Shown: positions 216 through 6,360 of the stretch, piece after piece
Layout of the letters: the number at the start of each line of letters is the position of its first letter
Numbering within the stretch: position 1 is the stretch's first letter
IMG/VR virus record: IMGVR_UViG_3300046744_000223
Coordinates: 64,001-128,000 of that record
From: a virus
Length of the DNA stretch: 64,000 bases
Strand: one strand, 5' to 3'
Notes under the pieces: model-generated
Database searches by the model: none
What the model was told of the DNA's origin: nothing
Seen by the model: the letters and a program-made list of their open reading frames with translations, nothing else
Translations under genes and position numbers: made by a program

Positions 216-1481
216 TTAAAACGGATTAGAAATATCTTCGGTTTCAACATTGAACAAGTTATCATCTTGAGGAATTTCACCTAAGAACTTCTGAACATAT
301 TGTTTCATATAAACTCTTTCAGATTCAGCCCCACCACTTTGGTCGAACATTGGATAAACAGCCAACTCTGCAGCCTCACTTAGTGAGAACCCATCGTAGA
401 GTAGAGACCCAATCTCAACTGCGGTCCGTGTAGATAGTGCGTTAGATAACTTTGGAGACTCAGACATCAACTCGTTACGAGTCATGGAAGTCACCTCAGC
501 AACATTATTTAGAATCTCAATATCAACCGATGGGTACATCATTTGAAGTAGTTGAGTTTCCTCATCACGAGTCAAAGTATCCATTTCAATTGGAATGAAT
601 CGGTCAAGAATTGCCCGGTCAAGAGAACGTGTAGCGGTGTACTCATTACCAATGTTAGCAGAGGCGATGAACGAAACACCATCGGCGACCTTAACAACAG
701 GAGCGTCAGCAGCCTCATCGAGACGTAAGTAACGTTGACCTTGGTCAAGGACGGTCATTAGAATGTTGTGAGCCTCAGGATGGGCCCGAGTCAACTCATC
801 AAGAACAACCACGGTATTTGGAGTGGATATCGCCTTGACAAATGGTGATGGGTTAAACACCGTACCTTTCTTGGTTTCAAACTGAGTGTTCCCAATCAAT
901 GTGGTTCGTGGGTCTTGGGTAGCTCCCAAGTTAATTACAAAGGTGTTGTAACCTTCAATTGAATTGGCAGCAGCCTTAGCAGCCATAGTCTTACCACAAC
1001 CGGCTGGACCAGTCATCATAATATTCTTACCACGAATGATGTTACGAATAAGAAGTTTCCACTTCAAAGGATTCATGAACAACATCTGAGGTTTAAGACC
1101 TTCAGACTCCTCGTGAATAAACTTGAGGACATCATCTGACATCTCAACTGAAATTGGTGTTGATTGTGATTTTGGTTTATACTCCAATGATAACAACCCA
1201 CCATTTGGATTGTTGAAGTTACCAACAGGCTCAAGGTTATCTTCAACCTTTGATGATGGAACACGTGTATGTCCTAACTCACCATCGGACAATCGACCAA
1301 CGACACGAACCTTCCATCCCCACTTAGCAGGATTGTTGGCGGCCGCTCTGGCACGTTTGTAAAGAGAAGAACCCTTCTCGTTTAATTCCTCAATAAGGAA
1401 GTTAACTCCATTGGAGTCTTGAAACATTAGTTGATTGTCTACTTCTACAATCTTACCGAAAACTGATTTTTGTGACTTCAT
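216..1481 (-). CDS. MoxR/CbbQ/CobS-type AAA+ ATPase
   Basis: Walker A GPAGCGKT, Walker B VVVLDELTR, ASAN sensor, LDRAILDRF Arg finger, STR sensor II. Start moved to 1481 because the track start lies inside the promoter. Confidence 0.9.
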   Translation of the reverse strand: MKSQKSVFGKIVEVDNQLMFQDSNGVNFLIEELNEKGSSLYKRARAAANNPAKWGWKVRVVGRLSDGELGHTRVPSSKVEDNLEPVGNFNNPNGGLLSLEYKPKSQSTPISVEMSDDVLKFIHEESEGLKPQMLFMNPLKWKLLIRNIIRGKNIMMTGPAGCGKTMAAKAAANSIEGYNTFVINLGATQDPRTTLIGNTQFETKKGTVFNPSPFVKAISTPNTVVVLDELTRAHPEAHNILMTVLDQGQRYLRLDEAADAPVVKVADGVSFIASANIGNEYTATRSLDRAILDRFIPIEMDTLTRDEETQLLQMMYPSVDIEILNNVAEVTSMTRNELMSESPKLSNALSTRTAVEIGSLLYDGFSLSEAAELAVYPMFDQSGGAESERVYMKQYVQKFLGEIPQDDNLFNVETEDISNPF

Positions 1482-1498
1482 ATTTTTATATTTCTCAA

Positions 1499-1566
1499 TT
1501 ATTACTCTGTAAATATAGTGATTTAGGTTCACAACTCCAAACTTTTAATGTTAAGTTTATGTTAAC
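1499..1566 (-). promoter_or_regulatory. early promoter cassette: TTAACA-N5-TTAACA, TTTG(-33), N20, TATATTTA(-7)
   Basis: caaa 1538-1541 and taaatata 1510-1517 on +, 20-nt spacer; 30 nt identical to the copy at 1826-1855. Confidence 0.85.
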
Positions 1567-6013: not shown

Positions 6014-6025
6014 TAAGAATCTTAG

Positions 6026-6098
6026 AGCGAAAGACGAGATTCGAACTCGCGACCCCCACCTTGGCAAGGTGATGCTCTACCAGCTGAGCTACTTTCGC
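6026..6098 (-). tRNA. tRNA-Gly(GCC), canonical
   Basis: GCGAAAG/CTTTCGC acceptor, anticodon loop TTGCCAA, TTCGAAT T-loop. Confidence 0.95.
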
Positions 6099-6104
6099 TT
6101 ATTG

Positions 6105-6176
6105 AGCGGAAGGGTGGCTCCGCCCCACCATCTTTGAACTGGATGTTCAACGAGTTTCTCTTAACTCCTCTTCCGC
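6105..6176 (-). tRNA. non-canonical tRNA-Gly(UCC)-like RNA, copy 1
   Basis: perfect 7/4/5/5 cloverleaf; anticodon loop CATCCAG; T-loop GGCGGAG; A8, U14, A33. Confidence 0.85.
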
Positions 6177-6181
6177 ATTAT

Positions 6182-6241
6182 AGAGAATGATAACCCGTAG
6201 CTTAAATTGAGCGGCCTTATCCCAATCTTTAACCATTCTCT
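6182..6241 (-). ncRNA. structured 60-nt spacer RNA between the two atypical tRNAs
   Basis: AGAGAATG/CATTCTCT closing stem, internal GATAA/TTATC and GCT/AGC helices. Confidence 0.4.
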
Positions 6242-6244
6242 TTG

Positions 6245-6316
6245 AGCGGGAGGTTGGTACTGCCCCAACACCTTCTATCTGGATGATAGACGACTTTCTT
6301 TTAAGTCTTCTCCCGC
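6245..6316 (-). tRNA. non-canonical tRNA-Gly(UCC)-like RNA, copy 2
   Basis: perfect cloverleaf; same CATCCAG loop; T-loop GGCAGTA; stems covary with copy 1. Confidence 0.85.
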
Positions 6317-6328
6317 GTTATTGTTTAT

Positions 6329-6360
6329 ACAATATACAACAATTTTTTGAATAAAACAAA
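6329..6360 (-). promoter_or_regulatory. promoter for the Gly-tRNA sub-cluster (TTTG-N20-TATATTGT)
   Basis: same geometry as the other early promoters, 12 nt upstream of copy 2. Confidence 0.7.

Follow-up and report, generated by a model that had tools for sequence, protein, structure and literature searches.

Two tRNA-Gly(UCC)-like RNAs encoded side by side in a large marine phage are probably dedicated, and probably non-decoding, glycyl donors for the phage's own Mom DNA-modification enzymes. The stretch of DNA analyzed here (the window; 64,000 nt) spans bases 64001-128000 of IMG/VR virus record IMGVR_UViG_3300046744_000223, a 172,940-bp genome with 35% GC that is ~90% complete. Judged by covariation, the two RNAs (copy A and copy B) are real, strongly selected members of a phage RNA family that is widespread, is missed by gene finders, and appears to be undescribed; judged by gene neighborhood, this family is coupled to mom, though not universally.

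Two rebuilt tRNA-Gly-like RNAs and their family

As originally predicted, the window contains two 72-nt cloverleaves whose stems differ only by compensatory changes; both are read on the minus strand (Table 1). Between them, six of the 21 pairs are changed, each on both sides (acceptor 5-68; D stem 12-23; anticodon stem 28-42, 29-41, and 31-39; T stem 50-64), none is broken, and five unpaired positions differ. In copy B, the acceptor has 7 bp, the D stem 5 bp (loop AAAAGA), the anticodon stem 6 bp (loop AUCCA), and the T stem 5 bp (loop GGCAGUA); the variable region is 4 nt long, and the RNA ends in U73 and the trailer CAA. Copy A has the D stem GAGU/ACUC, the T stem GGUGG/CCACC with the T loop GGCGGAG, the anticodon loop CAUCCAG, U73, and the same trailer. 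The minimum free energy fold is the cloverleaf for both copies (-28.3 and -29.4 kcal/mol), with z-scores of -3.5 and -5.0 against shuffles, and 0 of 200 shuffles folds as well.

Both RNAs have the arms of a canonical elongator tRNA, a cloverleaf with a 7-bp acceptor and D, anticodon, and T arms, but the canonical set of U8, A14, G18 G19, U54 U55 C56, and A58 is found in neither, nor is a 7-nt anticodon loop with U33. In keeping with the departures listed in the original prediction, both have a D loop without GG (A18 G19), T loops of the form GGCRG, U51-A63, and A33 flanked by C32/G38 in the identical loop CAUCCAG; both also have A8. The glycine identity set (G1-C72, C2-G71, G3-C70, C35, C36, and U73) is present in each. 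Low scores from gene finders were anticipated, and ARAGORN calls neither copy; in a 1.4-kb search, the Rfam tRNA model (RF00005) matches neither of them, whether the gathering score or E<=10 is applied.

Using an 85-aa neighboring open reading frame (ORF) as an anchor, we collected 22 related loci, in which a covariance model of copies A and B gives 35 strong matches (81-104 bits). These loci usually hold an orthologous pair of B-like and A-like paralogs, and the spacer between copies is 1-2, 65, 77, or 92 nt among relatives. Two pattern scans and an nhmmer profile enlarged the sample to more than 80 distinct sequences, which is a lower bound; the family is larger than this sample. A first DNA pattern scan, which used an anticodon-arm motif, returned 115 chance hits and zero relatives, and a T-arm pattern scan of genome contigs returned the family in 0 of 120 stretches among the matches listed, these being high-GC chance matches that are uninformative on bacteria.

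Across 46 distinct sequences of subfamily 1 (a sister subfamily is described below), stem cells are paired at a rate of 99.7%, and both sides have changed in 16 of 22 pairs; 0 of 500 shuffles equal this covariation, and slid controls pair at 40-49%. RNAalifold independently recovers the cloverleaf, with a 5-bp D stem (14-21 is U-A in 39 sequences and C-G in 7) and a 6-bp anticodon stem. U14 pairs and covaries with A21 while A8 never changes, so position 14 extends the D stem to 5 bp; the original prediction read the bases A8 and U14 correctly, but the swapped tertiary pair it proposed between them is rejected. Positions 32 and 38 form a Watson-Crick pair in 45 of 46 sequences (C-G 39, A-U 3, U-A 3) and covary, closing the anticodon loop to the 5-nt sequence NNCCA.

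Subfamily 1 has fixed A8, A18, G19, A44, G45, U51-A63, G55, C56, R57, U73, and C74, with G54 and G58 in 45 of the 46 sequences. Rare T-loop variants carry U54...A58 or A54...U58 (UGCGAUU in the subfamily-1 locus L166 and AGCGUUA in gp45-anchored loci L421-L500); by this pattern, 54-58 behaves as a covarying tertiary pair around which G55 and C56 stay fixed. The full glycine identity set, whose conservation had been noted for the two copies, is invariant in 46/46 sequences, as is A37. Within the anticodon loop only C35, C36, and A37 are fixed: position 33 is U in 24 sequences, A in 20, and G and C in one each, position 34 is U in 33, A in 12, and C in one, and some relatives have an anticodon loop of 4 nt or 6 nt. 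Some invariant columns were forced by the search patterns; the same invariants occur in the neighbor-anchored and gp45-anchored samples. Random decay among homologs, against which the original prediction had set its claim, is not seen, and the same deviations are kept with strong covariation.

The putative -33/-7 promoter that had been placed 12 nt upstream of the pair is conserved among relatives. The promoter-like element ends 12 nt before G1 of copy B, and in an alignment of 11 related loci (A7) most have the motif TTTG-N20-TAtaTTTG (also TAnnTTTG) ahead of their first copy. It was not detected by a sigma-70 scan; on its sequence, the motif is of the Bacteroidota type rather than the sigma-70 type, and this type hints at a Bacteroidota host. 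The two odd RNAs (U73-C-A-A) and the five canonical tRNAs of their cluster have a common trailer, N73-C-(A/U)(A/U). Shared trailers and a conserved promoter-like motif would fit ordinary tRNA-style expression and the presumed Bacteroidota host. An 8-bp hairpin (AGAGAAUG/CAUUCUCU) could form in the spacer between the copies, which also contains CCGCUCAA, a string that resembles the 3' end of the RNAs and may be the relic of a third copy.

Genomic association with mom

The leading idea of the original prediction, that the RNAs supply glycine to a transferase such as Mom, is supported by the rest of the genome and by RNA-mom linkage among relatives. The original prediction recognized no partner transferase in the window; the two mom genes of this genome (G000) lie outside it (Table 1). 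The glycine that phage Mu Mom takes from Gly-tRNA-Gly goes to the adenine N6 position of double-stranded DNA, after which the product rearranges to 6-NcmdA (PMC13219725); the donor role that the original prediction had given for Gly-tRNA holds in the literature. The catalytic residues listed for Mu Mom are H58, Y59, R111, S124, D149, R151, and Y159, with R111 and S124 essential, and more than 8000 homologs are found in IMG/VR and ocean viromes (PMC13219725). Both Mom proteins of the window's genome are full-length, exceed the PF25680 cut-off of 27.1 bits, and match the Mu Mom crystal chain (PDB 8bv8, E 7e-9). The 12 aligned Mom homologs all have H58, Y59, S124, D149, and Y159, and at least 90% of them have R111.

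Each of the seven subfamily-1 carriers with a completeness of at least 87% has 2-3 mom genes. Among the matches listed, six divergent members detected solely through the RNA pattern lie within ~70 nt of mom on the same strand: the RNA is 4 to ~70 nt before mom in L215, L231, and L381 and 7-64 nt after it in L159, L222 (a complete 34-kb phage), and L398. In L212, L252, and L202 the RNA is 2.2, 6.4, and 8 kb from mom. Loci anchored on diverse Mom proteins contain a tRNA-Gly-like gene in 11/80 cases, versus 1/100 control loci (p 7e-4), and 10 of the 12 copies lie within 100 nt of mom; Gly-like genes make up 12/13 of the tRNA-like genes in mom loci versus 2/30 in controls (p 7e-8). Many of these mom-adjacent genes are non-canonical, with the T loop UGCAA (G55) and D loops without GG, and in one from a high-GC phage (L589) both the GGCAG T loop and an NNCCA pentaloop recur. 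A check of co-occurrence had been proposed for both Mom and Fem genes. For Mom it is borne out by the near-complete carriers and by mom-adjacent RNAs in many unrelated phage contigs; for Fem it is not, with no match to FemAB (PF02388) or Fem-like GNAT (PF13480) in five carrier genomes. L/F-transferase is likewise absent from the carrier genomes, and a general GNAT model finds nothing shared by SAR11 phages. A scan for relatives with the window genome's Mom gave short fragments only and is uninformative. The Mom paper makes no mention of tRNA genes beside mom (PMC13219725), and we found no paper that mentions them.

Other mom-adjacent tRNA-Gly-like genes (L593, L606, L605, L600, L547, L561, L557, L563, L586, and L603) have 6-nt or 8-nt anticodon loops (AUUCCA, UAUUCCAA) and T loops that are UGCAA or canonical; ARAGORN calls three as tRNA-??? 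with a two-base anticodon. In L620 (G012:C1:25500-30500), one strand encodes, in this order, the RNA, a CobS-like AAA_5 ATPase (391 aa), a 98-aa ORF, and two successive Mom proteins; a CobS-like gene is also next to or near the RNA in G005, in HTVC008M, and in the window (216-1532). A separate 194-kb record (G003) carries a subfamily-2-like RNA with a UCAA tail and a 518-aa ORF (L518:1363-2919, minus strand) in which DUF7487 is joined by a weak PvuRts1I-like nuclease match and by a Mom-like domain scoring below threshold (20.7 bits); this ORF has no homolog in the SAR11 myophage Mosig.

Nearly all genes of the window are on the minus strand, including a tRNA cluster in this region with Arg-UCU, Glu-UUC, Gln-UUG, Ser-UGA, and Gly-GCC (ARAGORN, Rfam). 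Surrounding genes are CobS/CobT-like, APS-kinase-like, a thioesterase, and GT25 and FkbM-type. The canonical tRNA-Gly(GCC) adjoins the pair as had been pointed out, and has a standard elbow and the T stem G49-U65, C50-G64, G51-C63. We found no cultured phage close to the window, and blastn of the RNA pair against GenBank phages gives no match. A PolyA_pol/CCA-enzyme nucleotidyltransferase domain (112 bits) occurs within a 1215-aa ORF of a sister genome (G001:C1:30361-30717, minus strand); it is not found in the window's genome, and among the carrier genomes searched it occurs only in G001.

Table 1. Coordinates of the RNAs, associated elements, and related genes (positions without a prefix are those of the window)
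Feature	Location	Strand or setting	Details
Promoter-like element	6329..6360	-	-33 TTTG 6360-6357; 20-nt spacer; -7 TATATTGT 6336-6329; read from sequence
Copy B	6245..6316 (read 6316->6245)	-	72 nt including U73; first in transcription order; R2 95.5 bits
Spacer between copies	6177..6244	-	68 nt; read from sequence
Copy A	6105..6176 (read 6176->6105)	-	72 nt including U73; paralog of copy B; R2 93.6 bits
Canonical tRNA-Gly(GCC)	6025..6098	-	downstream, separated from copy A by 6 nt; called by ARAGORN; Rfam 68.3 bits
Mom ORF 1	G000:C1:138705-139499	outside window, same genome	264 aa; PF25680 165.7 bits
Mom ORF 2	G000:C1:139483-140244	tandem with ORF 1, outside window	253 aa; PF25680 147.7 bits
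HTVC008M element	NC_020484.1 91140-91213 (L616:3641-3714)	between CobS and S21	R2 51.8 bits
Mosig element	MT647606.1 7779-7852 (L259:6007-6080)		annotated as 31-aa hypothetical protein; R2 62.4 bits

A sister subfamily in SAR11 myophages

Members of subfamily 2 are 74 nt long and have an encoded CCA, U8, U33, and the 7-nt anticodon loop UU[U/A]CCAA. They lie upstream of gp45 in 75 of 77 gp45-anchored pelagimyophage-like loci (L421-L500), and both cultured SAR11 myophages, HTVC008M and Mosig, hold an unannotated, elbow-rewritten tRNA-Gly with the anticodon ACC (Table 1). HTVC008M has been listed with 0 tRNAs (PMC7029224). The CobS/S21/Hsp20/gp45 neighborhood surrounds the RNA in several lineages. 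One pelagimyophage-like contig encodes an ARAGORN-called tRNA-Gly with anticodon ACC (L214:3359-3433) besides its elbow-rewritten element (876-949).

Over their first 24 nt, the Mosig element and the T4 tRNA-Gly(UCC) differ at two D-loop bases only, and their 3' acceptor strands are identical. Based on this identity, the family likely descends from a T4-type phage tRNA-Gly(UCC).

Readings of the RNAs and relation to known systems

If the two RNAs are glycyl donors for Mom, they would be expressed from the promoter-like motif, processed by RNase P in the manner of tRNAs, and completed with CCA. A search of the carrier genomes with a class-II GlyRS core found no phage-encoded GlyRS, so charging with glycine would rest on the host enzyme, which is predicted to recognize both RNAs. 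The ribosome would be unable to use the charged RNAs efficiently; poor use by EF-Tu and the ribosome is suggested only by U51-A63 and the loop geometry. The charged RNAs would then serve as private glycyl donors for the two phage Mom-family enzymes, which would pass glycine from Gly-tRNA-Gly to adenine N6 in double-stranded phage DNA, and the modified DNA would be protected from host restriction.

Several observations weigh against this reading. Mu Mom accepts all host tRNA-Gly isoacceptors (PMC13219725), and at the position of Mu R151, a residue reported as essential, the 12 homologs have E or K. The seven near-complete carriers are close kin and represent few independent events. The RNAs of the window's genome are in an ordinary tRNA cluster ~68 kb from mom, so that the link in this genome is one of co-occurrence within a phage lineage. 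Five large mom-bearing records, three of them complete, lack such an RNA, and some carrier fragments, G006 (62% complete) and G007 (49%), show no mom. Copy numbers of RNA and Mom are unequal, with one RNA and three Moms in G004 and two and three in G001. In the complete genomes of HTVC008M and Mosig, Mom has no match even at E<=10. The rebuilt elbow itself is, by its distribution, not tied to Mom, because it is nearly universal near gp45 in SAR11 myophages and the two genomes tested are without Mom. Two narrower proposals were also rejected: copy numbers do not support one RNA per Mom paralog, and the 68-kb distance excludes cis-regulation of mom mRNA in this genome.

The RNAs could instead be working decoders, odd tRNA-Gly(UCC) species that read GGA and GGG beside tRNA-Gly(GCC) and whose elbow was rebuilt for another purpose, such as escape from a host tRNA-targeting factor. 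They fill the T4-type slot of tRNA-Gly(UCC) in clusters where nearly all other tRNAs are U34 types and a canonical Gly(UCC) is absent; about half of the relatives have U33, with the loop reading CUUCCAG, and the Mom-less SAR11 subfamily keeps U33, the 7-nt loop, and an encoded CCA. The phage's favorite glycine codon is GGT (65.5%), matched by the canonical tRNA-Gly(GCC), and GGA and GGG together make up 29%. Two copies for minority codons speak weakly against decoding; other points against it are, in both window copies, A33 and a 5-nt loop closed by Watson-Crick pairing of 32 with 38, the free drift of positions 33 and 34, loops of 4-6 nt in some relatives, and U51-A63 in place of the strong EF-Tu pair. 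As decoding also leaves the RNA-mom linkage unexplained, we regard it as unlikely. Fixation of the elbow signature (A18, G55, C56, and a covarying 54-58) in Mom-less pelagimyophages, together with the shared CobS/S21/Hsp20/gp45 neighborhood across several lineages, would suit donors or cofactors for another, unrecognized tRNA-dependent enzyme shared with the SAR11 myophages, with Mom secondary or coincidental. The recurrent immediate neighbor in subfamily 1 is mom, however, and these genomes yielded no FemAB, Fem-like GNAT, L/F-transferase, or shared GNAT; we give such an enzyme only a small chance.

Retention of tRNA-Gly recognition elements with loss of decoding features would also be expected of decoys that soak up a host tRNA-Gly factor, whether an anticodon or T-loop nuclease, a GNAT toxin acetylating Gly-tRNA-Gly, or GlyRS. 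Phage tRNAs that counter tRNA-targeting defenses are a known theme. A stoichiometric decoy would nevertheless be weak against catalytic enzymes, no associated defense or counter-defense gene is seen, and the adjacency to mom is left without explanation, which makes decoys very improbable. Rejection of both copies by gene finders and the short relic-like string in the spacer are what might be left by tRNA pseudogenes in decay, by relics of attachment sites, or by sequences that only signal RNase P processing, but compensatory change is pervasive, dozens of divergent phages show identical deviations, both paralogs persist as orthologous pairs, and the identity nucleotides are invariant; we attach almost no weight to this explanation.

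Glycyl donation to Mom may form part of a broader arrangement, which we put forward tentatively and think somewhat doubtful as a whole. The RNAs would be a private, orthogonal glycyl carrier, with elbow and anticodon loop rewritten in such a way that GlyRS and Mom accept it and EF-Tu, the ribosome, and perhaps host tRNA-directed enzymes refuse it; RNA and mom would form a two-part module mobile between unrelated phages, the two RNA paralogs may serve Mom paralogs of different DNA specificity, and the SAR11 scaffold would feed another tRNA-dependent enzyme. If so, DNA momylation would be insulated from translation.

Non-proteogenic tRNAs for a non-ribosomal transferase have previously been known from one cellular lineage, the staphylococci, and the dependence of Mom on Gly-tRNA-Gly was published only in 2026, in work that assumed host tRNAs. 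If glycyl donation to Mom is correct, the phage RNAs would add a second case, in viruses, to the known division of tRNAs between translation and another pathway, offer a natural orthogonal tRNA scaffold whose elbow is rewritten, and mark adenine-hypermodified ocean phage genomes. An overlooked tRNA is thus present in phages for which few tRNAs or none are listed, among them the SAR11 model phage HTVC008M.

The staphylococcal non-proteogenic (NP) tRNA-Gly species (NP1-NP3) are donors for FmhB, FemA, and FemB, and have the T loop UGC/UGU, no G19, a 6-bp anticodon stem, and a 5-nt loop (PMC7826273). Their T stem is weak (A49-U65, U50-A64, A51-U63), as compared to G49-U65, C50-G64, and G51-C63 in proteogenic tRNA-Gly with high EF-Tu affinity (PMC7826273). 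The window's canonical tRNA-Gly(GCC) has exactly this proteogenic combination, and the odd RNAs have NP-like traits. With the NP species they share glycine identity, the UCC anticodon, G55 (within UGC/UGU there and GGC here), the lack of G18 G19, weak 49-65, 50-64, and 51-63 pairs without G51-C63, the 6-bp anticodon stem, and the 5-nt loop, as well as the proposed logic, in which a non-ribosomal transferase draws on a Gly-tRNA pool that is kept out of reach of EF-Tu and the ribosome. The NP species are, however, cellular and reported from staphylococci only, while the window RNAs are phage-encoded and their linked enzyme modifies DNA rather than peptidoglycan; positions 54 and 58 are rewritten here (G54...G58, covarying with A...U and U...A), A8 is present, and there is no Fem-family gene. 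By this analogy, the likeness is one of working principle and not of family membership.

Like Mu, the window's genome encodes Mom-family proteins, two of them full-length and keeping H58, Y59, R111, S124, D149, and Y159, and the co-substrate of Mu Mom is the kind of molecule that the window RNAs would be once charged. Mu differs in having no tRNA and using any host isoacceptor, whereas here mom is doubled or tripled and accompanied by a dedicated non-canonical tRNA-Gly, and R151 is unconserved. The T4 tRNA-Gly(UCC) (T4t006) resembles the Mosig element in its 3' acceptor strand with UCCA, and the window RNAs are in a comparable tRNA cluster; unlike them, it is a decoder that gene finders call, with the standard GG in its D loop, UUCGA in its T loop, and U33 in a 7-nt loop. 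The SAR11 myophage elements share A18 G19, G55 C56, U51-A63, and the glycine identity set with the window RNAs but differ in their encoded CCA, U8, U33, 7-nt loop, and UCC or ACC anticodon, and in being single-copy, with a fixed position near gp45/S21, in phages of which neither complete genome has Mom.

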